From an uncultured Gemmatimonadota bacterium (GTDB lineage Bacteria; JAAXHH01): a stretch of DNA of 64,000 nt. The notes under the pieces were generated by a model. The model was not told where the DNA came from, ran no database searches, and saw nothing but the letters and a program-made list of their open reading frames with translations. This document shows, piece after piece, positions 2,773-47,258 of the stretch; the first letter of the stretch is position 1, and the number at the start of each line of letters is the position of its first letter. The translations under genes and the position numbers were made by a program. Where the stretch lies: NCBI GenBank assembly GCA_951812955.1, contig OX638340.1, forward strand, positions 704,001 to 768,000, given 5' to 3'.

Positions 2773-3929
2773 ACATCAGGGATATCCGCGCCTTCACCGT
2801 GGACCTGTCTCGTGCCAGGAAAGCGGTCAAATCCTCGCTGCAAAGGAAAGGCCGCCAACCTGCCGGCCCCATGGATCGATACCCTGACTACCGGGGCAGT
2901 CGTTCGGCCGCGGGACCCTCCTGGCCAAGCGCGGCGTGCATTGTCGAAGCTGATGACGGATCTTTCGGCCTGGGTATCACCCAGCAGAGCGGCCCGGTCC
3001 TTCCCATCATCAACGATCACTTCCGGTCGCTGCTGGCGGGTCAGCCCGTCATGGCAACGGAGAAGTGCTACGACCTCATGGTCCGCGCGAGCGCCGCGTA
3101 CGGAAGCCAGGGCGCGGCCGGTTTCGCCATCAGCGCGGTGGATCTTGCGCTCTGGGACCTGAAAGGCAAGCTACTCGGCAGGCCGGTGTACGAGTTGCTG
3201 GGCGGTCCACAGAAGAAACACATCGACTGCTACGCCACGGGATTCGATATCGAATGGTACCTCGAGCTGGGGTTCAAGGCGGTTAAACTGCCTATGCCTT
3301 ACGGCCCCGACGACGGGATCGACGGACTGAACCGGGCCGATGAAATGGTTGCCGAAACGCGGGCGACGATCGGCGACGATATCGAATTGATGCTCGATTG
3401 CTGGATGGCGCTTGACGTGGAATACGCCGTTAGGTTGGGCGAGACGCTGAGACCCTATCGGTTGAAGTGGCTGGAGGATTACCTGATGCCCCACGACCTG
3501 GGCGGATTCGCGGCCGTCCGGCGTCGCTTACCTGCACAGGGTCTGGCCACGGGAGAACACTGGTACCTGGCGGAACCGTTCCTGTATGCCGCTGAACACC
3601 GGCTGGTGGATATCTTTCAACCGGATATCAAGTGGTGCGGCGGGATGTCCGCCGCGGTCCGCATCTGCCACATCGCCGAGGCCGCCGGGTTGACCGCCGC
3701 ACCGCATGGCGCCATGAACGATCCCTATGGACAACACCTGGTGTTCGCCATGCCCGCGGCAAGGTGGGGCGAAAGGTCAAGCGGAGTCTCCCCGCCCGGG
3801 GTACCCCTCGCGGAGATGGTTGAACTGCCGGGAACGGCCGTTATCGAAGACGGCTGTTTGACGCCCAGTGACGCTCCGGGTTTCGGGATCGAGGTGGACC
3901 AGGCATGGCTGGACCGCTTTGCCGTATGA
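2769..3929 (+). CDS. Enolase-superfamily enzyme (mandelate racemase/muconate lactonizing family; sugar-acid dehydratase-like)
   Basis: AVDLALWDLKGKLLGRPVYELLGG plus a KWLEDY-type metal-ligand region. ATGA overlap with the PhyH gene stop. Confidence 0.75.
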   Translation: MNIRDIRAFTVDLSRARKAVKSSLQRKGRQPAGPMDRYPDYRGSRSAAGPSWPSAACIVEADDGSFGLGITQQSGPVLPIINDHFRSLLAGQPVMATEKCYDLMVRASAAYGSQGAAGFAISAVDLALWDLKGKLLGRPVYELLGGPQKKHIDCYATGFDIEWYLELGFKAVKLPMPYGPDDGIDGLNRADEMVAETRATIGDDIELMLDCWMALDVEYAVRLGETLRPYRLKWLEDYLMPHDLGGFAAVRRRLPAQGLATGEHWYLAEPFLYAAEHRLVDIFQPDIKWCGGMSAAVRICHIAEAAGLTAAPHGAMNDPYGQHLVFAMPAARWGERSSGVSPPGVPLAEMVELPGTAVIEDGCLTPSDAPGFGIEVDQAWLDRFAV

Positions 3930-3932
3930 CGG

Positions 3933-5033
3933 TTATTCCTCCGGCCCACGGTCTTCAGATTCCTGCGGTAGATGAACCGTCCGGGTCGGAAAGGCCAGAC
4001 TGAGTCCGAGCGATTCGACGATCTCCATGATCTTCAGGTTTACGTCCTCCCTGATCCGCAGGTAGTCCTCCCACACCGTTGTCGCGGTAAAGTAGTAGAC
4101 CATGATGTCGAGGGAGTTCTCGGCAATCTCGTTGAAGCGTACGAGCATGGTCGATTCCTGGCTTACTTCGGGATGGGTACGCAGCAGTTTTTCTATCCTT
4201 GAAACGGTCTCTCTCATCAATTCCGACGGCGTATCGTAGGTGAGTCCCACCGTGATCCATACCCGGCGGAATGGCCGGGAAGAGATATTGTCGATTACGA
4301 ATTCCGCCAGCCGGTTGTTCGGAATAACGACGACGGTCTGTTCAAATGTCCGGATCCTGGTGCTGCGAAATCCGACGCTTTCCACCACGCCTTCGATCTC
4401 CCGGTCGGGCGACACGATCCAGTCCCCGGCGACGAAGGGTCGGTCGACCAGCAGCATGATGGACCCGAACACGTCGGCCAGGGTCTTTTGAGCTGCCAGC
4501 GCCACGGCCAGGCCGCCGATCCCCAGACCGGCCAGCAATCCCGAAACCGAGTAACCCAGATTCTGCAGGATCATGAGCGCCGCCAGGATCCAGACCAGAA
4601 TCTGAAGCGCTCGCTCCACGAGCGGAACCAGGTGGTCGTCCAGGGTCGTGTCCGTTTTGTGGGCCCATTCCTTGAGCATTGACGTGAATACGTTGACGCA
4701 TCTGAAAATCATCCAGGCCGTCAGAAGTGAAAAGGGCACCCAGAATCCCGCTCGTAACACCCCCATGACCAATTCAGGCGGACGAAGCGTATAAATGGCG
4801 AGATACAAACCTAGCACGACGATAACCCATTCGAGGGGTTTCTCGACCGCCATGATCAGCATATCGTCCAGGTGGGTCCTGGTAACGCGGGCCAGCCGTT
4901 TGGCGGCGCGGGTCATCAAATGCTTGAACAGCCATTTAAATACTAGCGTCCCAAGCAGAATCGCAAAGGTTGTACCGATTTCCCTGCCCGTCCACTGCCA
5001 CGACTGTTCAAGCAGGTTGTAAAGGGCGTCCAT
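3933..5033 (-). CDS. Mechanosensitive ion channel, MscS family
   Basis: TM helices followed by the MscS beta-domain signature (VVIPNNRLAEFVIDNISSRPFRRVWITVGLTYDTP). Start placed at the internal ATG with GGGAAGGA RBS (MDALYN); the ORF is open to 5084. Confidence 0.8.
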   Translation of the reverse strand: MDALYNLLEQSWQWTGREIGTTFAILLGTLVFKWLFKHLMTRAAKRLARVTRTHLDDMLIMAVEKPLEWVIVVLGLYLAIYTLRPPELVMGVLRAGFWVPFSLLTAWMIFRCVNVFTSMLKEWAHKTDTTLDDHLVPLVERALQILVWILAALMILQNLGYSVSGLLAGLGIGGLAVALAAQKTLADVFGSIMLLVDRPFVAGDWIVSPDREIEGVVESVGFRSTRIRTFEQTVVVIPNNRLAEFVIDNISSRPFRRVWITVGLTYDTPSELMRETVSRIEKLLRTHPEVSQESTMLVRFNEIAENSLDIMVYYFTATTVWEDYLRIREDVNLKIMEIVESLGLSLAFPTRTVHLPQESEDRGPEE

Positions 5034-7334: not shown

Positions 7335-8708
7335 ATGGATTCCGACGTCAGAGACCCCATCCGCCGGGCACCCTGGCAGAACCTCCAGGTACTCATCCAG
7401 GCCGATTCACGGCACGTACTGCCTTCCTATATCGGTTCGCTGACGGCGAGCGAACTCGCCCTGGCCGTCTCGCGCCTGAGCCAGGAAGAGCATACCCGGC
7501 TGCTCAATCTCCTTTCGCCCCAGGACGCGGCCGAGTTGATCGATCAGATCGAAGACGTGCAGGCGGTCGACCTGATCGAGGATCTCCCGGCGTCGGAAGC
7601 CGCGGCGATCGTCGACGAGATGTACAGTGACGCCCAGGCGGACCTGCTCGGCGACTTGAAAGACGAAGAAGCGGAAGCTATTCTCGAGGCGATGCCGGAC
7701 GAAACGGCCGAGGAAGTCCGGCGCCTGATGCAGTATCGGGACGATACGGCCGGCGGCATGATGCTGACCGAGTTTGTATCCTATCCCGCGGATTACTCCG
7801 TTCAGCACGTAATCGACGACCTGCGGAACAGACACGATGAATACGCCGGTTACGATGTACAGTATCTTTATGTTTCGGACGGACCGAAGCTGTCCGGTGT
7901 ACTGAGACTGCGCGACGTGCTCATGGCACTGCCCGGCCAGCCGCTCACGGAGATCATGTCGGCTGACCCGGTGCGCGTCGACGTCCATACGCCGCTTGAA
8001 GAAATGCGCGACCTCTTCGAGACCTATACCTATCTCGGACTGCCGGTTATCAATGAAGAAGGGAAACTGGTCGGCGTAGTACGCGCCGCGGACGTGCAGG
8101 AAAAACTGGCGGAGAAAACCGAAAGCGAGTTCCGAAAGACGAGCGGTATCGTGGGCGGCGAGGAACTGCGCAGCATGCCCGTCCTTACAAGGTCCTCTCG
8201 CCGGCTGTCCTGGCTCAGCGTCAACGTCGTGCTGAACATCCTGGCGGCGAGCGTCATCGTATTATACCAGGATACCATTGAAAAGGCGATCACCCTGGCG
8301 GTATTTCTGCCCATCATTTCAGACATGAGCGGATGCTCGGGCAACCAGGCCGTGGCCGTGAGCATCCGGGAACTGGCCCTGGGCCTCGTACGGCCCCGGG
8401 AGATCCTGCGCGTCCTCTTCAAGGAAGCCTCGGTGGGACTCATGAACGGACTGGCGCTCGGGACGCTCTTGGCCATAGCCACCCAGTTGTGGCAGGGAAA
8501 CCCGTACCTGGGTCTAGTCGTCGGAACCGCTCTGGCTGCAAACACAGTGCTCGCTGCGTGCCTGGGTGGGGTCATTCCCCTTGCGCTCAGGGCACTCAAG
8601 GCCGATCCCGCGCTGGCCTCCGGCCCCATGCTCACGACGGTAACCGACATGTGTGGCTTCTTTCTTCTCCTCAGCCTGGCGCAGTTCGTATTGCCGAAAC
8701 TGGTATGA
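7335..8708 (+). CDS. mgtE: Magnesium transporter MgtE
   Basis: Acidic MgtE N-domain, CBS pair, and C-terminal TM domain with the PIISDMSGCSGNQA... signature. Confidence 0.85.
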   Translation: MDSDVRDPIRRAPWQNLQVLIQADSRHVLPSYIGSLTASELALAVSRLSQEEHTRLLNLLSPQDAAELIDQIEDVQAVDLIEDLPASEAAAIVDEMYSDAQADLLGDLKDEEAEAILEAMPDETAEEVRRLMQYRDDTAGGMMLTEFVSYPADYSVQHVIDDLRNRHDEYAGYDVQYLYVSDGPKLSGVLRLRDVLMALPGQPLTEIMSADPVRVDVHTPLEEMRDLFETYTYLGLPVINEEGKLVGVVRAADVQEKLAEKTESEFRKTSGIVGGEELRSMPVLTRSSRRLSWLSVNVVLNILAASVIVLYQDTIEKAITLAVFLPIISDMSGCSGNQAVAVSIRELALGLVRPREILRVLFKEASVGLMNGLALGTLLAIATQLWQGNPYLGLVVGTALAANTVLAACLGGVIPLALRALKADPALASGPMLTTVTDMCGFFLLLSLAQFVLPKLV

Positions 8709-8759
8709 AACAGGTAAATTGGATCAAACCCACGGTCGAACTACCCCGACGTCGGGCAG

Positions 8760-10157
8760 GTGGATCGTGCGACATGCTATTCGGACACAAGGACATTCGC
8801 GGTGCACCCCAGCATATCCAACACCCTCGGTAGTATCCGCAAGGCAAGCCGGTTCATCGGCAGCGAGATCTGGCTCATCAATACCCAGGGATTGTCCCGG
8901 CTGCACGCACTTCTGGTGCGTATTGCCAAGTCCGTAATCTTCCTGTATAACCAGTTCTGGGAAGACCGCCTGCTGACCCGCGCCTCGGCGCTGACCTTCT
9001 CCAGCCTGCTGGCCCTTGTCCCGCTGCTCGCTATCGTCTTTACCCTGTACCAAAGCATGGGCCTGTACGTGGAAATCGAACCTACCCTCCGAGAATGGCT
9101 GAGTCCACTGGGCAGCAACGGAGATGTCGTGGCCACGAATATCATGAATTTCCTGGCCAATGCCCAAACCGGCACGCTGGGATACGTCGGGGTGGTGGTC
9201 CTTCTATTCGCGGTCCTGGGAATCCTGGCGAATATCGAGGAATCCTACAACGACATCTGGCACGTACGGCAGATGCGAAACTGGAAGCAACGACTGGTCA
9301 GCTACCTGGCCCTGTTGCTCATTGGACCGCTGATCATCACCGGCGTAGTTACTTTTACGGGTTCGTCCGACAGCATTGCCATCCTGGCCTACATCGAACG
9401 GATCGCGGGATTCTCGCCCCTGTCCTTATTGCTGATCGGACTCTTTTTTTCACTCATTATCTGGTCGGTGCCCAATACGCGGGTTTGGATCCGTTCCGCC
9501 CTGGTCGGCGGCATGAGTTCCGGGTTCGGCTGGTTGTGGCTCAACTGGGCCTTCGCCCAGTTCATTGCCGATACGACGCAGGCGAGCGCGAGAGAGATCC
9601 TTTTTGCCGGTTTCGCCGCCCTGCCGCTATTCCTGATCTGGCTGTACCTGGGCTGGGTGATCCTGCTGCTGGGAGCGATCCTGGCCTATTCGATTCAGAA
9701 CGTGAACACCATGGAGTGGAGGCAATCGGAGCGGGTCCACGGGACGGCGCTGCGGAATTACATCAACGTCCTCGCGTTCCTCTACATCATCCGCAATTAC
9801 GTGGAAGAAAACCGGCCGACCAGGCTGGATCGGCTTGCCGTACAGACAGGGGCTCCGGAGAACGTACTGGACGAAATGCTGTCTTCCTACGTGGATTCCG
9901 GTCTGCTTTCGAGGAAATCCGGACACCGCGTCACCTACGTTCCTGCCACCTCGCCTGCGGATATTCCCCTGCGTTCCCTGCTGAACGTGCTGTATCATCC
10001 GGAAACGCTGCCGGACCGGTTCGAGGGTGTCGATCCGCTGCATGCCATGGCCCGGGACCTACTGCAGTACTACCGGACGTCCTACCACTATCCCCTCGAT
10101 CAGTCCCTTACGGACACGGTGCTTTCACTCACGCCGCCGAGGAAGAACGCCCAGTGA
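8760..10157 (+). CDS. YihY/BrkB (ribonuclease BN-like) family inner-membrane protein
   Basis: ASALTFSSLLALVPLLAIVFTLY plus a multi-TM YihY pattern. Start uncertain (8760 or downstream). Confidence 0.7.
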   Translation: MDRATCYSDTRTFAVHPSISNTLGSIRKASRFIGSEIWLINTQGLSRLHALLVRIAKSVIFLYNQFWEDRLLTRASALTFSSLLALVPLLAIVFTLYQSMGLYVEIEPTLREWLSPLGSNGDVVATNIMNFLANAQTGTLGYVGVVVLLFAVLGILANIEESYNDIWHVRQMRNWKQRLVSYLALLLIGPLIITGVVTFTGSSDSIAILAYIERIAGFSPLSLLLIGLFFSLIIWSVPNTRVWIRSALVGGMSSGFGWLWLNWAFAQFIADTTQASAREILFAGFAALPLFLIWLYLGWVILLLGAILAYSIQNVNTMEWRQSERVHGTALRNYINVLAFLYIIRNYVEENRPTRLDRLAVQTGAPENVLDEMLSSYVDSGLLSRKSGHRVTYVPATSPADIPLRSLLNVLYHPETLPDRFEGVDPLHAMARDLLQYYRTSYHYPLDQSLTDTVLSLTPPRKNAQ

Positions 10158-36919: not shown

Positions 36920-36988
36920 CGAGTTTATAAAAGGGACCCGCGGACCGCGGAATAACAAGGCCACGCCGGAGAACGCCAAGGATTGACC

Positions 36989-39900
36989 GTGCCGAGTAAA
37001 ACCTCCCTTTCCGCCTGGCACGCGCTGCGAGACCGGCTCCACGAACTTCGAATCCGCAGCCGTTGGGTTGTCATCGCCGAAGGCTTGTTCATCACCGGCG
37101 CGCTGATCTGCGTCCTCGCGCTTTCCCTCGCCACGCTCGAATCCTACCTCTACCTCGACCCGGTGGTTAGGCTGGTACTGATCTCGGCGAGTATCATGCT
37201 CCTGACGGCAGTGCTGGTCCGGCGAAATCTGCATCGTTTGAGACACGGTTTTTCCGACGATGACCTCGCGCGGCAGGTCGATTCCCAGTATCCTGAATTG
37301 AACGACCGGGTCACCGTGGCCTTGCAACTCTCCCGGCAGCGGGAAGAGGGATCCAAGGCCTCGCCCGCACTCCTGGACGCGGCCGTTACGGATGCCGCAA
37401 AATACACCCGGACGGTGGATTTCAAAGAAGCAGATCAAAGATTCCGCATCGCCCCGGCCGCCAAGAGATTCGGCCTTGCCGCGCTGCTATTGATACTGGC
37501 GATGGCCGCGTTCGGCGCGCCGCTTACCGGCGCCCTCGGCCGGCTGGCAAGCCCCCTGACCCATTTCCAGCCTCCGCAACGCACGTTTCTGAGCGTCCTG
37601 CCGGGAGACGTGGAAGTTGCGGCCGGAGGCCACGTAACGATTATGGCCGAAGCGGTCGGCGAGATGCCAGGCCGGGCCATCATGCACCTGACCTCGGACG
37701 AAGGATCGAGCAACTCCGTGGATATGAAGGCCACGGCGCCGGGTTCGTACTCCCACACCCTGCGGGAGATCAGGGAGAGTCTGACCTACGTAATCGAGGC
37801 CGGAGACGCCGTCAGCCATTCCTTTCGCATCAAAGCCATCGATCGCCCGTTCATCGGCGCGCTGCGCCTTACCTATCATTATCCTGCCTACACCAGGCTT
37901 GAACCCAGGACCACCACCGAAGGAGGCGACATCGTCGCACTGAAGGGAACGCGGGTGGAACTGGCCGCCGTGGATGCAAGCCGGAATCTGTCGGAAGCGG
38001 CGCTTTTCATCGAGCATTCAGACGAACCGGTAGCCATGAAGGTTGTAGACGACACGGCCACCGTACCGCTGACCGTGCAGTCAGATCAACGGTACCGCAT
38101 CATGTTGCGCAACATGGACGGCCATGAAAGCGCGGACCCCGCATGGTACCGGATTATCGCGTTGCCGGACCGCATGCCATCGCTCCGCATCCTGTCGCCC
38201 GGCCGAAATACAGATCTCACGGAGAACATGGTCGTTTCGTTTCTGGTATCAGGCACGGACGACTTCGGGTTCTCGGGAATGAACCTGGTCTACCGTAAAG
38301 AACCCGGAGGCGAGGAGCGGAACCTGCCCATCCCCGTGGACACGGAGTCCACGATGATTTCGCAGCCATTCGTCTGGGATCTCTCAAATGAAAACCTCTT
38401 TCCGGGGGACGTGGTCTCCTACCGGATCGAATTGTATGACAACGACACGATTTCGGGGCCGAAGCGGGCGGTAAGCCGCACCTATACGCTCCGGTTTCCT
38501 TCGATAGAAGAGATATACGATCAGATCGACGAAACACAGGAACAACAGGTCTCGGACATGGAGGATATGCTGGAAGAGCAGGAAGAAACCAGGAAGAAAA
38601 TCGAAGAACTGAATCGGACCCTCGAACAGAAAGCAAGGGAAGAAGCCGACGGGATTCAGTCGGAGGAATTGTCCTGGGAACAGAAAAAGGAGATCGAATC
38701 CGTTCTGACCGGCCAGGAACAGGCGACCGACGAACTCCTCAAAGCGGCCGAAGCGATCAGGGCGACCATGGAAACACTGGAAGACCACGATTCGCCCAGC
38801 CAGGAGCTCATCGACAAGATGGATCAACTGCGGAAGCTTTTTCAGGAGATCGCCACGCCCGAATTGCTGAAGGCTATGCAGGAATTGAAACAAGCCCTTC
38901 AGTCCTTCGACAACGAGCAGCTGAAGGCGTCGATGGAATCCTTCGAATTCGAGCAGGAAGAGTTTTTGAAACGACTGGAGCGCAGCCTCTCCATTCTGAA
39001 GCAAATCCGGATGGAGCAGCAGTTGATGGCTGCCGTTCGACAGACTCAGGACCTCGCTGCACGACAGGACGAGTTGCGCTACGCAACGGAGAATTCGTCG
39101 AACAGCGAAGAGCGATTGGAACTATCGGAAAAGCAGCAACAGTTAGGGGAGGACACAGGCTCCCTGCAGCGCGACCTGGAAAGTCTCGCCCGCGCGATGG
39201 AAGCGTTCAGGGACATGCCCGCAGAGCGTGTGCTCGAGGCCGCCGGCGATATGGAACGCCGGGATATGACGGGAAACATGGATCAGATCGCCGAACAATT
39301 GAAAGTCGGCAGGATGCAGCGGGCGATGGCAGGCCAACAGGAAATGTCCCGGGCGCTTTCCGGTCTGAACCAGCAACTGCAGGACATCCAGGATCAACTA
39401 CAGGAAGACCGGATGCGGGAAATCGCCGAAGGAATGCGCCGCGCGATGCACCAACTGGTCGATCTTTCCGTCAGCCAGGAGACCCTTAACGAACGCACCC
39501 GGAGCCCGGGTGGGTCCGGAACCCGGATCAACATTCTTACGGAAGACCAGCAGGGACTCCTTGGCGGCGCTTCGCTCGTGGCCAACGACATCGTATCCAT
39601 TGCGCAGAAAACGCCGTTCATTTCTCCTTCCATCGGACGAGCGCTGGGAGAAACACTGAACAGCATGGAGCGCGCGGAGGACCACCTGGCCGAACAGGAA
39701 CGCGATACGGCGTCCGGGGAACAACTGGCCGCCATGAAGTCTCTGAACGAGACCGTACTGGCCTTGCAGCGGTCCATGAGCAACATGGCGAATTCCGGTT
39801 CGTCCTCCGGCATGATGGATCTCATCGAAAGGCTTCAGGGCATGGCCAGGCAACAGACCGGAATTAACGACCAGATGGACCCGATGATGGATGAATCGAA

Positions 39901-40372
39901 CGGCAGCATGGACCTGGAAACCCAGGCACAGGTATCCAGGCTGGCAGCCAGGCAGGAAGCGTTGCGTAAGAGCCTGGAACAACTGCGTAGTGAGCAGCAG
40001 GGTCATCAGGAACAGATTCTCGGCAGGTTGCAGGAAATCGAAAACGAGATGGACGACACCGTACGTGAGTTGCAACAGTTCCGGGTCGACCCCGACCTGG
40101 TGGAGCGCCAGCAACGGATCCTGTCCAGGTTGCTGGACGCTTCGCGGTCCATTCGCGGACAGAAACGCGAGGAAAAGCGGCGAGCCGCACCTGGCGAGGA
40201 CCTCGTTAACCTTCCTGCGCCGGACGACTTGCCCGAAGATCTGACCCAGCTGGAACGCTCCCTCCGGGATGATATCCTGGGTCGTGTCGAAGAAGGCGCG
40301 TATCCCCGGGAATACGAAGAACTCATACGCGCCTATTTCCGCGCGCTTGCACACATTCCTGTAGTAAACTAG
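36989..40372 (+). CDS. Large (~1128 aa) double-TM anchored protein with an Ig-like beta-rich middle region and a ~600-aa E/Q/L-rich coiled coil; function unknown (DUF4175-like?)
   Basis: Two N-terminal TM helices, a beta-rich region (~aa 230-500), and heptad-like repeats rich in E, Q, L and R to the C-terminus. GTG 36989 follows AAGGA (spacer 6); the ORF is open from TTG 36983. Confidence 0.6.
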   Translation: MPSKTSLSAWHALRDRLHELRIRSRWVVIAEGLFITGALICVLALSLATLESYLYLDPVVRLVLISASIMLLTAVLVRRNLHRLRHGFSDDDLARQVDSQYPELNDRVTVALQLSRQREEGSKASPALLDAAVTDAAKYTRTVDFKEADQRFRIAPAAKRFGLAALLLILAMAAFGAPLTGALGRLASPLTHFQPPQRTFLSVLPGDVEVAAGGHVTIMAEAVGEMPGRAIMHLTSDEGSSNSVDMKATAPGSYSHTLREIRESLTYVIEAGDAVSHSFRIKAIDRPFIGALRLTYHYPAYTRLEPRTTTEGGDIVALKGTRVELAAVDASRNLSEAALFIEHSDEPVAMKVVDDTATVPLTVQSDQRYRIMLRNMDGHESADPAWYRIIALPDRMPSLRILSPGRNTDLTENMVVSFLVSGTDDFGFSGMNLVYRKEPGGEERNLPIPVDTESTMISQPFVWDLSNENLFPGDVVSYRIELYDNDTISGPKRAVSRTYTLRFPSIEEIYDQIDETQEQQVSDMEDMLEEQEETRKKIEELNRTLEQKAREEADGIQSEELSWEQKKEIESVLTGQEQATDELLKAAEAIRATMETLEDHDSPSQELIDKMDQLRKLFQEIATPELLKAMQELKQALQSFDNEQLKASMESFEFEQEEFLKRLERSLSILKQIRMEQQLMAAVRQTQDLAARQDELRYATENSSNSEERLELSEKQQQLGEDTGSLQRDLESLARAMEAFRDMPAERVLEAAGDMERRDMTGNMDQIAEQLKVGRMQRAMAGQQEMSRALSGLNQQLQDIQDQLQEDRMREIAEGMRRAMHQLVDLSVSQETLNERTRSPGGSGTRINILTEDQQGLLGGASLVANDIVSIAQKTPFISPSIGRALGETLNSMERAEDHLAEQERDTASGEQLAAMKSLNETVLALQRSMSNMANSGSSSGMMDLIERLQGMARQQTGINDQMDPMMDESNGSMDLETQAQVSRLAARQEALRKSLEQLRSEQQGHQEQILGRLQEIENEMDDTVRELQQFRVDPDLVERQQRILSRLLDASRSIRGQKREEKRRAAPGEDLVNLPAPDDLPEDLTQLERSLRDDILGRVEEGAYPREYEELIRAYFRALAHIPVVN

Positions 40373-42262: not shown

Positions 42263-43701
42263 CCATGTCCAGATCGCTTCACATACATCTTGTGGCCATC
42301 TGCGGTACAGGGATGGGCGCGCTCGCGGTGATGCTCAAGTCTCTGGGTCACCGGGTTACCGGAAGCGACGAGAACGTCTATCCCCCAATGAGTACGGTGC
42401 TTTCGGAGCAGCGAATAACTGTATTTAATGGTTACGCCGCATCCAACCTGGATCCGCCGCCGGACCTAGTAGTCATCGGAAACGCGGTTTCCCGGGGCAA
42501 TCCCGAGGCCGAAGCGGTGCTCGAAAGGAAGATCCGGTATGCGTCCATGCCGGAGACACTCAAGACATTCTTTCTATGGGACCGCAAACCGGTCGTGGTG
42601 GCGGGAACACACGGCAAGACGACTACGACGGCGATGCTCGCATGGGTGTTCACCGAAGCCGGCCTGGATCCAAGCTACATTGTCGGCGGCGTTCCCATCG
42701 GCTGGCAGACCGGCGCGCGGCTGGGATCGGGCGACCTGTTCATCCTGGAAGGCGATGAATACGACAGCGCCTTCTTCGACAAACGTGCGAAGTTCCTTCA
42801 TTACCTGCCCGATACGGTGATCATAAACAACATCGAATTCGATCACGCGGACATTTACGATTCGCTCGATGAGATCGAGCTTGCCTTCAGAAGGCTGGTC
42901 AACATCATACCGGAAAACGGCCTGTTGATCGGCCCGGCGGACGACGCCCGTGTCCGGGCGCTCGCTTCACGCGCATTCTGCCCCGTCCATACCCTGGGCG
43001 CGTCACCGGACGCAAGGTGGTCGGTGCGTGACGTATCCAGCGATCCCGGCGGCACGTCCTTCGACCTGTATGAACTGGGTGAGCACCGCGCCCGTCTCAT
43101 GATCGGTCAACTCGGAATGCACAATGTCAGGAACGCCCTGGCGGTCGTGGCCGCCGCCAGGCATTACGGCGTATCCTGGCCGGATCTGACACGGAGCCTG
43201 AAGTCCTTCCCCGGTGTGAAGCGGCGTCTCGAAGAGCGGGGCGAAATAAATGGTATCGCGGTCTACGACGATTTCGCTCACCACCCCACGGCCGTAAAGG
43301 CGACGCTGGAAGCCCTCAGGAGGGCTTTTCAGGACCGGCGTATCTGGGCCGTATTCGAACCGCGTTCCGCCACGACCATACGCCGGAACTTCCAGGAAGC
43401 CTACGGCGCTGCATTCGACAACGCGGACCGCGTGCTGATCGCGCCGGTCTTTCTACCCGGCAAAGCGCCGGACGGCAACCGTTTTTCAGTGGACGAACTG
43501 TTGGATGGACTGCGCGGGCGGGGTCTGAAGGCCGTCGCCACGGAAAGCGTGGAACAAATCGTCGAACATCTAGCCGAGGAGGCGGCGCCGGGCGACCGGA
43601 TCGTGTTCATGAGCAATGGGGGATTCGGCGGTATCCTCGATAGGACTTTGAACGCGCTGGGGAAAAAACACGCGGTGGAAGCGTCCCGGAAACAGGACTA
43701 G
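42259..43701 (+). CDS. mpl: UDP-N-acetylmuramate:L-alanyl-gamma-D-glutamyl-meso-diaminopimelate ligase (murein peptide ligase)
   Basis: HIHLVAICGTGMGALAVMLKSLGHRVTGSD N-terminus and Mur-ligase motifs (VAGTHGKTTTTAM). GTGA overlap with the TPR gene stop. Confidence 0.85.
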   Translation: MTMSRSLHIHLVAICGTGMGALAVMLKSLGHRVTGSDENVYPPMSTVLSEQRITVFNGYAASNLDPPPDLVVIGNAVSRGNPEAEAVLERKIRYASMPETLKTFFLWDRKPVVVAGTHGKTTTTAMLAWVFTEAGLDPSYIVGGVPIGWQTGARLGSGDLFILEGDEYDSAFFDKRAKFLHYLPDTVIINNIEFDHADIYDSLDEIELAFRRLVNIIPENGLLIGPADDARVRALASRAFCPVHTLGASPDARWSVRDVSSDPGGTSFDLYELGEHRARLMIGQLGMHNVRNALAVVAAARHYGVSWPDLTRSLKSFPGVKRRLEERGEINGIAVYDDFAHHPTAVKATLEALRRAFQDRRIWAVFEPRSATTIRRNFQEAYGAAFDNADRVLIAPVFLPGKAPDGNRFSVDELLDGLRGRGLKAVATESVEQIVEHLAEEAAPGDRIVFMSNGGFGGILDRTLNALGKKHAVEASRKQD

Positions 43702-44678
43702 GCGTGCCGAGCGTACACTTCGACGTCCATTACTTTGCCGGCCGACCTGAACTGCTTCCGCAGCGTAGCTTCATGGATGAATCCCGCGTCTCGCAGTGCC
43801 GCGCTCTTCGGGCCGTCGTCCGGTTCAACATGGCAGATTACCTTGCGTCCGGTCGGAAGAGCAAATGAATCGAGCAGTGGCTTCAGTTGCGCCGTAAAGG
43901 CGGAATGAACGGCCAGATCGAGGAGAAAGGTCTCGCCGCGCCAGCGGGTATCGGGCGCCAGGGTCGCGTAACCCGTGACCGCTCCGCGCTCCGTGACCAT
44001 CAGCCGGACCTGGACATCATCCGCTTCCCGTGTTTGCTTCATCAGCCCCAGGTAGGCCCCCTCGAACATGCGCGGTCCGATATGTCCCAGTCCGACGTTA
44101 CGCAGGGAAGGCGGACCGGACTGTGCGCAGAACACGTTAAGCGAAGGCCAGTTCTTCCAGTCCCCAGGGACCACGCGAGCCCTGCCTCCGCGGAAATGTT
44201 CCCGCTCGTACGCCGCGTGCTCCATGTACTTCATGTGACCCGATTCCGGCTCGACGCTACGGAAACCGAAGCCGTGGTAGAGGTAATAGGGATGGGTATC
44301 GTAGCCGGTGGACAGCGTAAGGTACCGGCCGTCCCGGGCTTTGAAATCGGCCATCTGCTCGGTCATTACGAGCCGCGCTACACCCTTGCGGCGGTGTTCA
44401 GGCGCGGTGTACACGTGGCTCAGGATGCCGATCCCGTCGTGTTCGCTGACCATGATGTTGCAGACCGCCCTGTCGTTTAGACAGCCGAGGTAGAACCTGG
44501 TTTCGAGGGGGCTGACCCGGCCGGCGAATACCTCGTCGAGATGCCACTGTTCGTTGCTGTACTTGTGCGCCAGGATCGGCCGGACCAGGGGCGCATAGTC
44601 GTCATCCGGCGCCAGGACGACGCCGATTTCGAGCTTTTCACCCGTGCGGAGCGTACTGGCGGCGATCTGCGTGTACAT
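43698..44678 (-). CDS. GNAT family N-acetyltransferase (tandem GNAT-like domains)
   Basis: Motif A region HVYTAPEHRRKGVARLVM...YYLYHGFGF. ATG 44678. Convergent 4-nt overlap with the mpl stop. Confidence 0.7.
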   Translation of the reverse strand: MYTQIAASTLRTGEKLEIGVVLAPDDDYAPLVRPILAHKYSNEQWHLDEVFAGRVSPLETRFYLGCLNDRAVCNIMVSEHDGIGILSHVYTAPEHRRKGVARLVMTEQMADFKARDGRYLTLSTGYDTHPYYLYHGFGFRSVEPESGHMKYMEHAAYEREHFRGGRARVVPGDWKNWPSLNVFCAQSGPPSLRNVGLGHIGPRMFEGAYLGLMKQTREADDVQVRLMVTERGAVTGYATLAPDTRWRGETFLLDLAVHSAFTAQLKPLLDSFALPTGRKVICHVEPDDGPKSAALRDAGFIHEATLRKQFRSAGKVMDVEVYARHA

Positions 44679-44733
44679 AAACGTTGGGGTACAATCGGAG
44701 TTGGGGGATGGATTGAGATCGCGGCCTGTGCTT

Positions 44734-45153
44734 CTAGGTCTGCCTGCCGCGGCCCAGAACAGCACCGACGGCCATGCCGCTCAACGCCACCTGAACTGTA
44801 TCGATGATGACCTTGATCAAGGTCCCGGTGAGATCCAGCATGGTGGTCATGCCAAAGAGGCTCAGACCCAGGAACAGGTGGAGTAGCGCTCCGAAGACCG
44901 CACTGGTCCCAAGGGCCTTTACCGCGCCGGTGTGGCCCGTCCAGCAGCCAAGGAGCACGGTCAGTAAAGCGCCCATGGCAACGGCGCCCAGGACGATCGT
45001 CCACACGTTCGGGCTGGACTTCATGACCAGTTCGGGAGCCGTCACCGCGTAACCTTTTAAAAAACCGCCGAACAAACCGCCAGCGGCAAAGCCAAGCAGC
45101 AGCACCATGACGGTCCCGGTTACAGTCGCAATGGCGAATCGTTGTACAGACAT
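44734..45153 (-). CDS. Small 4-TM membrane protein, DUF1761-like (paralog A)
   Basis: 139 aa, hydrophobic, with N-terminus FAIATVTGTVMVLLLGF. GGGAGAGGAG RBS. Paralogous to the adjacent gene. Confidence 0.5.
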   Translation of the reverse strand: MSVQRFAIATVTGTVMVLLLGFAAGGLFGGFLKGYAVTAPELVMKSSPNVWTIVLGAVAMGALLTVLLGCWTGHTGAVKALGTSAVFGALLHLFLGLSLFGMTTMLDLTGTLIKVIIDTVQVALSGMAVGAVLGRGRQT

Positions 45154-45253: not shown

Positions 45254-45667
45254 TCACTTCCTGGCGAGTACGATTCCGATCACGGCGCCCGCCAGGGAAA
45301 TGCGTACCGTCGTCAGGACAACGTCAAACAACGTCGCCTGGAGATTCATGTAGTGCACTGTGCCGTAGAACATCATGCTGATGCTCAGGCTCAGCAGGAA
45401 ACCGAAAATCGCGCCGGTCCTGAATCCCGCACCTGCGCCGGATACCTTTGCCCAGCAACCGATTACGAGGCACAGCAACGCCGCCAGTACCAACTCGCTC
45501 AGGTAAATGAACAGCATTTCGGGCGGGTCTTTCGTCACGGAGGCCGCCCCCGGATCGGCGTTCGCGGCGAAAAACCCCATGAACAACACCGCATACAGGA
45601 AGAAACCCATGACGAGCAGAACCACGGCGCCTGCGATCGTAGCGACCAGGAAACGGGTTAGACTCAT
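45254..45667 (-). CDS. Small 4-TM membrane protein, DUF1761-like (paralog B)
   Basis: 137 aa with the same architecture (FLVATIAGAVVLLVMGFFLY). GGAG RBS. Confidence 0.5.
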   Translation of the reverse strand: MSLTRFLVATIAGAVVLLVMGFFLYAVLFMGFFAANADPGAASVTKDPPEMLFIYLSELVLAALLCLVIGCWAKVSGAGAGFRTGAIFGFLLSLSISMMFYGTVHYMNLQATLFDVVLTTVRISLAGAVIGIVLARK

Positions 45668-45717: not shown

Positions 45718-47100
45718 TCACGCCGCGAGACCTGCTATCCGGTCGATGAGTATATCCACCTGTTCGGCCGTATCCATGACATGCAGCGTGGCGCGGACCC
45801 CGCTGAATCCGCCGGCGGCGCCGACCGTCCGTATATAGATGTTCGGGTTCCGGTACCACAACCGCCCGACGATATCTGAAGGATTCAGGTCCTTGACCGA
45901 AAAGGATACGAGCGCCATGGACATGCGGGGATCGTCCGACGAATAGACGGTGACCCCGTCGATCTCCTTCAATCCTCTTCTCAGCCGCAGGGACAGGTAA
46001 CGGAGCCGTGCTTCGATGGCTTCCGGGTTAAGTCTGTTGTGGAAATCCAGCGCCGCGCCGATCGAAATGCGGTCCGAGTAGCTCGTGGAGCCTCTCTGCT
46101 CGAGTTTACGCGCACCCTCGATGGCCCGGTCCGGATCGGGTGAACCGGTGTATACAAGCGGACGAATCCGGTCTGCCGCGTCGTTCCGGAGGAACAGGAA
46201 CCCGGTATGCTGGGCGGCCAGCATATACTTGTGGCCCGGGCCCGCGTACATGTCACACCCGAGATCCTGCATGTCCAACTTCATCATGCCAGGCGGTTGG
46301 GCCCCGTCGATCAGCGTTATGATGCCCTTCGACCTTGCCATCTCGCATATTTCCTTCACCGGCATGATGAAACCGTCGGTGTAGTTGATATGGCAGATGG
46401 TGAGGAACCGGGTCTTCGACGTAATGCCCGATTCCACCACGTCTATGACTTTCTGCGGGTCTTCGAGCATGCGGAAACTGGGATCCGAGATGTCCACCAT
46501 CTTGAATTCCAGGCCGTCTCGCTTCGCGCGAAACGCCATCATGTTCTTCACCCACCCGTAGTCATAGTTGGTCGTCAGAATCTCATCGCCCCGTTTCAGG
46601 TCCAGCCCCATGAATCCGAGGCCCATGCCATCGGTAGTGCTGTTTGTGAAGGCGATTTCCTCGACATCCGCTCCTACGAAACCGGCCATGTCCTTGCGAA
46701 TCTGGTCCATGCCGCTGAAAAAGTAGGTCGACCAGCACATGGCAGGATCGGAATTGACTGCTTCCACGGCCTCGGTCTGCGCCTTGTGGACGCTCAGGGG
46801 CGAAATACCCCGTGTGCCGGAATTCATGTATATCACGCCGTCACGAAGGAGGAACTGGGCCGCGACCTTCTCCCAGTATGCCTCGTCATCGGGTGCGGCG
46901 CCGCCATCCGGCGTGTCGGGCAGATCGGGCAGCGGCGCTGCTTCTGCTTCCTGAACCGGGGACAGCAGGGTCGACGCACCGGCCAGCCCGGCCGCGCCGG
47001 CCATCATGCTGCCAATGAATCCACGGCGGGACAGACCTTGCAGCTTGTCAGGGTCCTGAATTCGGGGATCGAAGTGCAATGTTCCTTCGTTGTCAGACAT
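45718..47100 (-). CDS. Tat-signal class V-fold PLP-dependent enzyme (aminotransferase / isopenicillin-N-epimerase-like), predicted exported
   Basis: Twin-arginine motif SRRGFIGSMMAGAAGLAGASTLL with an AEA/AP cleavage site, followed by a class-V fold (AGPGHKYML, SxHK-like). GGAGG RBS 7 nt before ATG 47100. Confidence 0.75.
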   Translation of the reverse strand: MSDNEGTLHFDPRIQDPDKLQGLSRRGFIGSMMAGAAGLAGASTLLSPVQEAEAAPLPDLPDTPDGGAAPDDEAYWEKVAAQFLLRDGVIYMNSGTRGISPLSVHKAQTEAVEAVNSDPAMCWSTYFFSGMDQIRKDMAGFVGADVEEIAFTNSTTDGMGLGFMGLDLKRGDEILTTNYDYGWVKNMMAFRAKRDGLEFKMVDISDPSFRMLEDPQKVIDVVESGITSKTRFLTICHINYTDGFIMPVKEICEMARSKGIITLIDGAQPPGMMKLDMQDLGCDMYAGPGHKYMLAAQHTGFLFLRNDAADRIRPLVYTGSPDPDRAIEGARKLEQRGSTSYSDRISIGAALDFHNRLNPEAIEARLRYLSLRLRRGLKEIDGVTVYSSDDPRMSMALVSFSVKDLNPSDIVGRLWYRNPNIYIRTVGAAGGFSGVRATLHVMDTAEQVDILIDRIAGLAA

Positions 47101-47165
47101 GAAATGCCTCCATCGGGGATCGAACCGTCCCGTTTATCCGGCTGAATTGGGCAAGTGTAGTGTGC

Positions 47166-47194
47166 AGTATAATTGGGATCTATAATGGGAACAA
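47166..47194 (-). promoter_or_regulatory. Candidate sigma-70-like promoter (TTGTTC-N17-TATACT) for the Tat-signal PLP enzyme gene
   Basis: Minus-strand cTTGTTCccattatagatcccaatTATACTg lies ~60 nt upstream of ATG 47100 in a lower-GC spacer. Confidence 0.3.
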
Positions 47195-47258
47195 GAAATA
47201 ACGATCCATGAGATTAAAGCGAAATGTCTGCGGACGCAGTAACCGCAATGCACAGCTT

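Follow-up and report, generated by a model that had tools for sequence, protein, structure and literature searches.

We examined a 64,000-nt stretch of DNA from an uncultured Gemmatimonadota bacterium (assembly GCA_951812955.1, contig OX638340.1, positions 704,001 to 768,000), referred to throughout as the window. The gene of interest lies on the minus strand and encodes the 460-aa precursor of a class V-fold pyridoxal 5'-phosphate (PLP) enzyme, the N-terminus of which carries a predicted signal for export by twin-arginine translocation (Tat). It was the single open reading frame (ORF) in the 64-kb window with a Tat-like N-terminus. The protein displayed 98% identity to P0001, a homologue encoded on a 3.85-Mb contig of a metagenome-assembled genome (MAG). 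Coordinates below are those of the window and residue numbers are those of the full-length protein; numbers in alignment A1 and in the structure model, which were both made without Met1, are lower by one. The gene, its start and its signal region comprise the following features.

45718..47100, minus strand: complete gene for the Tat-targeted class V-fold PLP enzyme precursor, 460 aa, from the ORF list and translation
47166..47194, minus strand: weak candidate promoter TTGTTC-17 nt-TATACT, 8/12 matches, below the scan threshold, unconfirmed, found by hand
47107..47111, minus strand: Shine-Dalgarno sequence GGAGG, 6 nt 5' of the ATG, read from the sequence
46939..47100, minus strand: predicted Tat signal peptide, residues 1-54, from the motif, h-region and matrix score
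47032..47079, minus strand: acidic n-region motif, residues 8-23, LHFDPRIQDPDKLQGL, from alignment A2
47011..47031, minus strand: twin-arginine motif S24-R25-R26-G27-F28-I29-G30, with R25, R26 and F28 invariant in alignment A1 (there R24, R25 and F27)
46951..47022, minus strand: h-region of 24 uncharged residues (27-50), Gly/Ala-rich and mildly hydrophobic
46939..46947, minus strand: signal-peptidase site A52-E53-A54, predicted cleavage before A55
46882..46938, minus strand: linker rich in Pro and Asp, residues 55-73, with the conserved AAPDDE-YW, the opening of the mature domain, at its end

The predicted Tat signal peptide and its conservation

The N-terminus of the PLP enzyme reads MSDNEGTLHFDPRIQDPDKLQGL-SRRGFIG-SMMAGAAGLAGASTLLSPVQ-EAEA/AP, the slash marking the predicted cleavage site. 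Residues S24 to G30 fit the consensus S/T-R-R-x-F-L-K at five of its six specified positions, where I replaces L and G replaces K. The h-region had a mean Kyte-Doolittle hydropathy of 1.06 and a combined Gly, Ala, Ser and Thr content of 58%, against family medians of 1.26 and 62% for an h-region of 21 residues. The AxA site was retained in clade-A orthologues as AEA, AVA, ADA or AAA. A lipobox-like Cys motif was found in place of AxA in three homologues, P0058, P0073 and P0087, and reads LAGC and LSGC in the first two. These three proteins are likely Tat-exported lipoproteins, and the motif thus provides an independent indication that the family is exported.

The first-pass annotation, made from the letters of the window alone, had called this N-terminus a canonical Tat signal, and had named an RR pair absent from orthologues and a true start downstream of it as findings that would speak against the call. 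Neither was encountered. RR-x-F was present in 114/120 best database homologues, approximately 24 residues from the start, the remaining six sequences being truncated or mis-started. It was also encoded in 87/87 loci from genomes and metagenomes representing at least seven phyla. In alignment A1, which comprises 58 sequences down to 44% identity, R25, R26 and F28 were invariant. The start codon of the 460-aa ORF is the ATG at 47098-47100. Since a ribosome-binding site (GGAGG) precedes Met1, and residues 8-23 of the 23 that lie before the RR pair are conserved as protein across phyla, a downstream start is excluded on sequence grounds. A promoter of the gene's own, which had likewise been suggested, did not find support, as a sigma-70 scan 5' of the gene reported zero sites and the sub-threshold TTGTTC-17-TATACT pair was all that could be located by hand.

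The signal was scored with a position matrix built from 33 usable, experimentally validated Pseudomonas aeruginosa Tat signals (Gimenez et al., PMC6085387, Table 2). The window's signal reached 30.1 bits, with leave-one-out scores of the positives at a median of 31.7 bits (range 13.3-43.4), and the highest score of the 688 RR dipeptides elsewhere in the six-frame ORFs of the window was 20.4 bits. With the RR motif, the uncharged h-region and the AxA site all conserved and a matrix score typical of validated signals, the proposed Tat signal is well borne out, and we consider export of the PLP enzyme by Tat very probable.

The segment preceding the RR pair was itself a conserved feature. Its family consensus is LNFDPRxEDPxxLxxL-S/T-RRGFLG, and, counting back from RR, conservation among 90 homologues of no more than 52% identity was 83% for F(-15), 81% for E(-10), 84% for D(-9) and 87% for L(-5), values that equal or surpass the conservation of the h-region. 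The n-region of the window protein carries a net charge of -3. The AlphaFold2 model of the enzyme had a mean predicted local distance difference test (pLDDT) score of 83.8. Confidence was low at model residues 31-55, as expected of a signal and linker, and averaged 72 at model residues 11-20 (protein 12-21) compared with 45 and 54 in the adjacent blocks. Long acidic n-regions are present in the validated Tat signals of NosZ and PA4140, hence there is precedent for the arrangement, and it is possible that the conserved segment has a role in export control. We also considered whether it might be a module common to other Tat substrates. When a profile of the segment was searched against 1.84 billion proteins, 17 matches came back, nearly all of which, among those inspected, were short fragments of the same family, the remainder being two spurious repeat proteins and one odd sulfatase-like fragment. 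A shared module was therefore unsupported by the search, in which a profile of 36 residues has limited power.

A sequence with this N-terminus, P0121, was found in the representative library as a 117-aa fragment. Its N-terminal part, spanning the signal region and little beyond, closely matches the equivalent part of P0025, a member of the family, after which the sequence runs into a sulfatase-like N-terminus (RPNVVVFFTDQQRWDT) and ends in an apparent frameshift. Either an assembly chimera or an exchange of signal peptides would account for P0121.

Active site, known relatives and a divergent clade

The class V-fold assignment made in the first-pass annotation was upheld. The Pfam model Aminotran_5 (PF00266) matched with an E value of 1.6e-45 and 156.1 bits, against a cutoff of 21.5, and the fold was confirmed by the AlphaFold2 model and structural matching. 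The PLP-binding residues were invariant. The catalytic domain and its active-site features are given below.

45748..46731, minus strand: Aminotran_5 catalytic domain (class V, fold type I), residues 124-451, from Pfam
46558..46566, minus strand: Y179-D180-Y181, which is H-D-H in the rest of the family, from clade substitutions and alignments
46297..46308, minus strand: D265-G-A-Q268, the class V D-x-x-Q motif, invariant in A1 and aligned with DGSQ/DAAQ of SufS
46228..46230, minus strand: Lys291, the Schiff-base PLP lysine in a G-H-K motif, invariant in A1 (K290) and aligned with the G-H-K lysine of SufS
45781..45840, minus strand: C-terminal active-site segment I-Y-I-R424 ... V-R436-A-T-L-H, from alignments

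The aspartate of the D-x-x-Q motif, to which D265 is aligned, is known to contact the PLP ring nitrogen in SufS. R424 and R436 were invariant (R423 and R435 in A1) and align with the SufS arginines of the R359A and R376A mutant structures. Because both of these active-site arginines are kept, a free alpha-amino-acid group is most probably present on the substrate.

Among solved structures, SufS proteins, C-DES and PvdN were the closest in sequence, the best matches among them being the type II desulfurases SufS/CsdA (TIGR01979; 1.7e-40 with the family profile). SufS and the window's family have in common the DGAQ motif, the lysine that binds PLP and the two aligned arginines of the active site. 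They differ in that SufS is cytoplasmic and works with SufE/SufU, no such partner being present near the window gene. Cysteine desulfurase activity was rejected as a function. In the profile-to-PDB alignment, the catalytic 'HC' residues of SufS fall in an insertion missing from the family, where the window protein reads IYIRTVGAAGGFSGVRA and has no Cys. Owing to the absence of this persulfide-forming Cys loop (...HHC...), the enzyme is not a cysteine desulfurase, despite the automatic names of its homologues; it scored 126.9 bits with TIGR01979 against 475.1, and 46.8 with the CsdA model against 607. Three conserved cysteines, C236, C252 and C282, were considered as catalytic residues and set aside, their SufS-aligned positions being probably buried and outside the active-site loop. 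None of the curated NCBIfam models reached its cutoff, the best two being PvdN (127.7/650) and the SufS subfamily (126.9/475). The name 'isopenicillin-N epimerase' borne by several homologues is an automatic Joint Genome Institute (JGI) name, and beta-lactam genes were seen in none of the loci examined. Members of the family should accordingly be annotated neither as cysteine desulfurases nor as isopenicillin-N epimerases.

A cytoplasmic enzyme with no known signal peptide, C-DES (PDB 1ELQ/1N2T) acts as a C-S lyase on L-cystine in Synechocystis. PvdN (PDB 5I90/5HH9; NF051467, Pseudomonas pyoverdine tailoring) was the top structural match, at approximately 20% identity. All 58 family members (58/58) matched the NF051467 model at E values up to 0.1, the best being 1.9e-41, yet with 127.7 bits the window protein lies far from the equivalog cutoff of 650. 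The n-region of PvdN comprises just three residues (MND-RR), compared with the conserved 23-residue acidic n-region of the window's family, and the family is further unlike PvdN in occurring in many non-pseudomonad phyla with several paralogues per genome. No pyoverdine or non-ribosomal peptide synthetase (NRPS) cluster (pvdMNO) was found in the neighbourhood of the window gene or in the related loci examined.

Very few enzymes with PLP chemistry in the periplasm have been characterised, chiefly PvdN and PtaA. PvdN has the class V fold and is carried folded by Tat with PLP bound, and needs to bind PLP in the cytoplasm for transport, as a mutant of the active-site lysine was stuck in the membrane and not exported (PMC6206403). 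A second Tat-exported PLP enzyme, PtaA/PA2531, is described as a 'normal' transaminase of the Pseudomonas periplasm (PMC6206403). The signal peptides of both have been experimentally validated (PMC6085387). The combination flagged by the first-pass annotation thus has a direct and characterised precedent in PvdN, which is also the nearest structure. Export by Tat is an established route for PLP enzymes already loaded with their cofactor, and the combination has been seen before.

In species-representative genomes, a pattern-limited scan recovered 381 relatives, and named relatives belong to Gemmatimonadota, Latescibacterota, Acidobacteriota, Methylomirabilota, Binatia, Myxococcota and Gammaproteobacteria MAGs. 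The nearest, at 98% identity, were on the 3.9-Mb MAG chromosome OY762445.1 and in 'Gemmatimonadetes bacterium APA_bin_41'. Judged by isolate names only (APA_, IRC1_, Plut_), the window's lineage appears to consist of sponge or coral symbionts. Genomes of this lineage carry three to four paralogues with approximately 45% mutual identity, each with its own conserved neighbourhood; L008, L041 and L051 are one such set on OY762445.1. A literature search found no paper on this PLP enzyme family. Periplasmic class V enzymes had been described at the outset as rare and their substrates as largely unknown. The two Pseudomonas precedents show that this description understates what had been established, and with 381 relatives the family is not rare in environmental bacteria. 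The large Tat-signal family described here is uncharacterised and of a known kind, with PvdN as its prototype. Every member examined carries a Tat signal, a stable family trait that is useful for annotation.

Paralogues of clade B were accompanied by MR_MLE, glyoxalase and MurT-like genes, and those of clades C and D by Peptidase_S58, GBBH-like_N and GFO_IDH_MocA genes.

The window's clade differed from the remainder of the family at the active site. Twenty-two alignment columns conserved at 88% or more in the rest of the family held a different, clade-fixed state (residue or gap) in the window's clade. Four histidines invariant elsewhere were among the positions changed (H179 to Y, H181 to Y, H210 to R and H428 to A), as were W292, which is Y directly after the PLP lysine, N435, which is V directly before Arg436, and residue 432. 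Tyr181 aligns with the SufS histidine of the H123A/H121A mutant structures (SufS of B. subtilis, where it is His121, T. onnurineus and S. maltophilia), and in the comparison with C-DES the window's clade has Tyr at this His123-aligned position and the rest of the family His. The joint loss of four histidines points to remodelling of a coupled acid-base, substrate-binding or metal-binding site, and the pattern suggests that the active site was remodelled or a metal site lost in this clade. Given that four family-invariant histidines are swapped, the substrate or reaction of the window enzyme probably differs from that of its relatives.

Rid neighbours and the possible role of the enzyme

Gene neighbourhoods were compared across seven encoding-contig loci and 80 genome loci, the latter dominated by the paralogues of one lineage. 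Outside the window's lineage, a gene of the Rid family (YjgF/RidA, 'endoribonuclease L-PSP') adjoined the enzyme gene in nine loci, usually in convergent orientation and at a distance of 13-170 nt. The Rid genes belong to two subfamilies, the first of them matching PF01042 (3.8e-31), and are listed by their positions within each locus.

L081, 9360-9821: Rid gene, subfamily 1
L082, 9383-9841: Rid gene, subfamily 1
L087, 9421-9870: Rid gene, subfamily 1
L075, ~9376-9741: Rid gene, subfamily 1
L083, ~4277-4693: Rid gene, subfamily 1
L029, 2519-2995: Rid gene, subfamily 1
L031, ~2795-3349: Rid gene, subfamily 2 (PF14588 plus PF01042)
L090, 6593-7183: Rid gene, subfamily 2
L091, 6560-7126: Rid gene, subfamily 2

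The Rid-linked loci are spread over at least three subclades of the enzyme tree, and at least five of the nine Rid proteins begin with clear Sec-type signal peptides. A literature search found nothing on exported RidA proteins. RidA proteins hydrolyse the enamines and imines, for example 2-aminoacrylate, that are released by PLP-dependent eliminases; to our knowledge, transaminases, racemases and decarboxylases release no such products. That exported Rid proteins of two types occur next to a PLP enzyme exported by Tat is thus suggestive of periplasmic elimination chemistry of the C-DES type. On this evidence from gene context, with fold rank and the lack of a Cys nucleophile as further indirect support, a lyase acting by elimination on an amino acid or an amino-acid-bearing compound is a tentative assignment, for which we would give somewhat less than even odds.

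We therefore propose a Tat-exported PLP enzyme with elimination chemistry, and place the probability of this combined explanation at roughly 0.55, a figure weighted to export rather than calculated as the product of the parts. By analogy with PvdN, the protein would fold in the cytoplasm and bind PLP there at Lys291. Once folded, it would be directed to the Tat translocase by the SRRGFIG motif and an h-region of weak hydrophobicity, and signal peptidase would cut after A-E-A54 to give a soluble periplasmic enzyme of approximately 406 residues with a short Pro/Asp-rich N-terminal tail. By analogy with C-DES, the mature enzyme might catalyse elimination on an amino acid or an amino-acid-bearing compound.

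A number of observations weigh against this explanation. No Tat machinery gene came up within the 64-kb window, where no search was aimed at one. The generic Tat-signal hidden Markov model TIGR01409 gave the window protein 13.6 bits against a cutoff of 16.7, and its homologue P0026 17.7 bits; rejection by predictors had been named beforehand as evidence that would tell against the signal, and the outcome was mixed, with a clear pass from the matrix and a borderline score from this model. PvdN is an oxidative decarboxylase-type tailoring enzyme and not a lyase. There was no Rid gene near the window's gene or at any paralogue locus of its lineage, the Rid gene of L090 also adjoins a gene for a PALP-family enzyme that is possibly its real partner, and synteny yielded no clue to the substrate. 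Lastly, the window's clade formed the longest branch of a neighbour-joining tree, sister to the remaining family. That branch, together with the Tyr at the SufS His123 position and the changes beside Lys291 and Arg436, indicates that chemistry inferred from the relatives may not be transferable to this clade.

The alternatives differ mainly in the chemistry or in the fate of the signal. An enzyme resembling PvdN in function would work in the periplasm on a secreted secondary metabolite, for instance a siderophore or peptide, and alter its amino-acid moiety by decarboxylation or oxidation. The structural match and the precedent for export are compatible with this, but the score falls far short of the 650-bit equivalog cutoff, identity is only 20%, and neither NRPS, pvdM/pvdO-like nor siderophore transport genes were present at the window or the related loci examined. 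The carriage of three to four paralogues per genome in unrelated contexts also suits scavenging or catabolism better than a single pathway, and we regard such tailoring as unlikely. Similarly improbable is a periplasmic transaminase, or an amino-acid epimerase or racemase, acting on free or cell-wall-related amino acids. The homologue names that point in this direction are automatic, and solved or curated models of these types were not near the top scores. A transaminase or racemase frees no enamine or imine, so the recurrent exported Rid neighbour would stay unexplained, and a periplasmic transaminase would in addition need a 2-oxoacid acceptor to regenerate PLP.

The remaining alternatives concern the signal itself. 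If it were left uncleaved, it could serve as a Tat-inserted anchor that holds the enzyme at the cytoplasmic membrane's outer face, perhaps in company with the two small membrane proteins encoded downstream on this strand. The c-region (QEAEA) is not basic but acidic, and the conserved 23-residue n-region, modelled with pLDDT above its flanks, may hint at a role beyond targeting. The AxA residues at -3/-1 are nonetheless conserved in the clade, a Gly/Ala-rich h-region with a mean hydropathy of approximately 1.1 is weak for a stable anchor, and three orthologous loci lack the membrane-protein genes; we consider an anchor a little less probable again than the other chemistries. It is highly improbable that the RR pair is no working export signal and the enzyme cytoplasmic, whether by a downstream start or some other role of the N-terminus. 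The TIGR01409 score under cutoff and the in-frame Met32 and Met33 would fit such a case, but a start at Met32 would leave a bare hydrophobic N-terminus and GGAGG sits before Met1. Residues 8-30 are moreover conserved across phyla with RR-x-F invariant, the peptide scores like validated Tat signals and some members carry lipoboxes.

Returning to the Tat-exported lyase, a more speculative and, in our view, improbable extension can be conceived. The family would represent a widespread, unrecognised periplasmic amino-acid lyase system, the enamines or imines of which are quenched by a dedicated exported RidA-type deaminase in several lineages. Export control would be the family-specific function of the acidic n-region (LNFDPRxEDPxxL), for example as a chaperone or proofreading site or as a dock on the folded, PLP-loaded domain. 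The window's clade, with its four histidines replaced, would represent a derived form of the enzyme in which the substrate or reaction is new. The identity of the substrate would show which amino-acid-type compounds these bacteria process outside the cytoplasm, and also whether RidA-type control of enamine damage operates in the periplasm. The size of the family, the expansion of paralogues, the link with exported Rid proteins and the histidine swap in the window's clade make this a reasonable target for enzymology, whilst the combination of fold and export would be unsurprising to a specialist.

Gene order around the enzyme

Gene order was conserved solely within close clades. In the window's clade it runs SDR, enzyme, two small paralogous membrane proteins, GNAT-like protein and Mpl-type Mur ligase, and neighbours in the window comprised SDR, Ldh_2, NUDIX, two PhyH genes, GNAT-like, Mur ligase and TPR proteins. 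The SDR, Ldh2, NUDIX and PhyH neighbours reported in the first-pass annotation were thus all present, the NUDIX match being weak (23.2 bits against a cutoff of 21.1) and PhyH occurring twice. A comparison of synteny in related genomes had been put forward there as a check. As the neighbourhood is shared only inside the window's close clade, it provides no functional lead. The two membrane-protein genes downstream of the enzyme are as follows.

45254..45667, minus strand: small membrane protein (137 aa) and possible co-transcript, lying 50 nt downstream of the enzyme gene
44734..45153, minus strand: second small membrane protein, 139 aa, paralogue of the 137-aa protein (BLASTP 35% identity, E 7e-17)

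Both had earlier been described as DUF1761-like. This description did not hold, as neither protein matched DUF1761 even at E values up to 10, and no Pfam family matched either one. The small membrane proteins were rejected as obligatory partners of the enzyme, since their genes are missing from the orthologous loci L008, L024 and L025. The SDR was rejected likewise. In L001, a 98%-identical locus, a 420-aa gene without a Pfam family (8607-9869) intervenes between the SDR and enzyme genes, where the window has only approximately 160 nt (47101-47258), and several clade-A loci display a similar gap of 1.4-1.6 kb. The site of the 420-aa gene is, on comparison of these sequences, an insertion/deletion polymorphism.

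Two further ORFs of the region were recorded. A 1129-aa ORF on the plus strand (36983-40372), flanked by genes for an S41/PDZ protease and a TPR protein, is conserved in most clade-A loci and has a counterpart in L001 (16727-20110) with no Pfam hit on record. The GNAT-like ORF (43698-44765, minus strand, 355 aa, GTG start) extends, as listed, into the end of the gene for the second membrane protein; its product is 326 aa in the annotation of L001, and the true start is probably further downstream.

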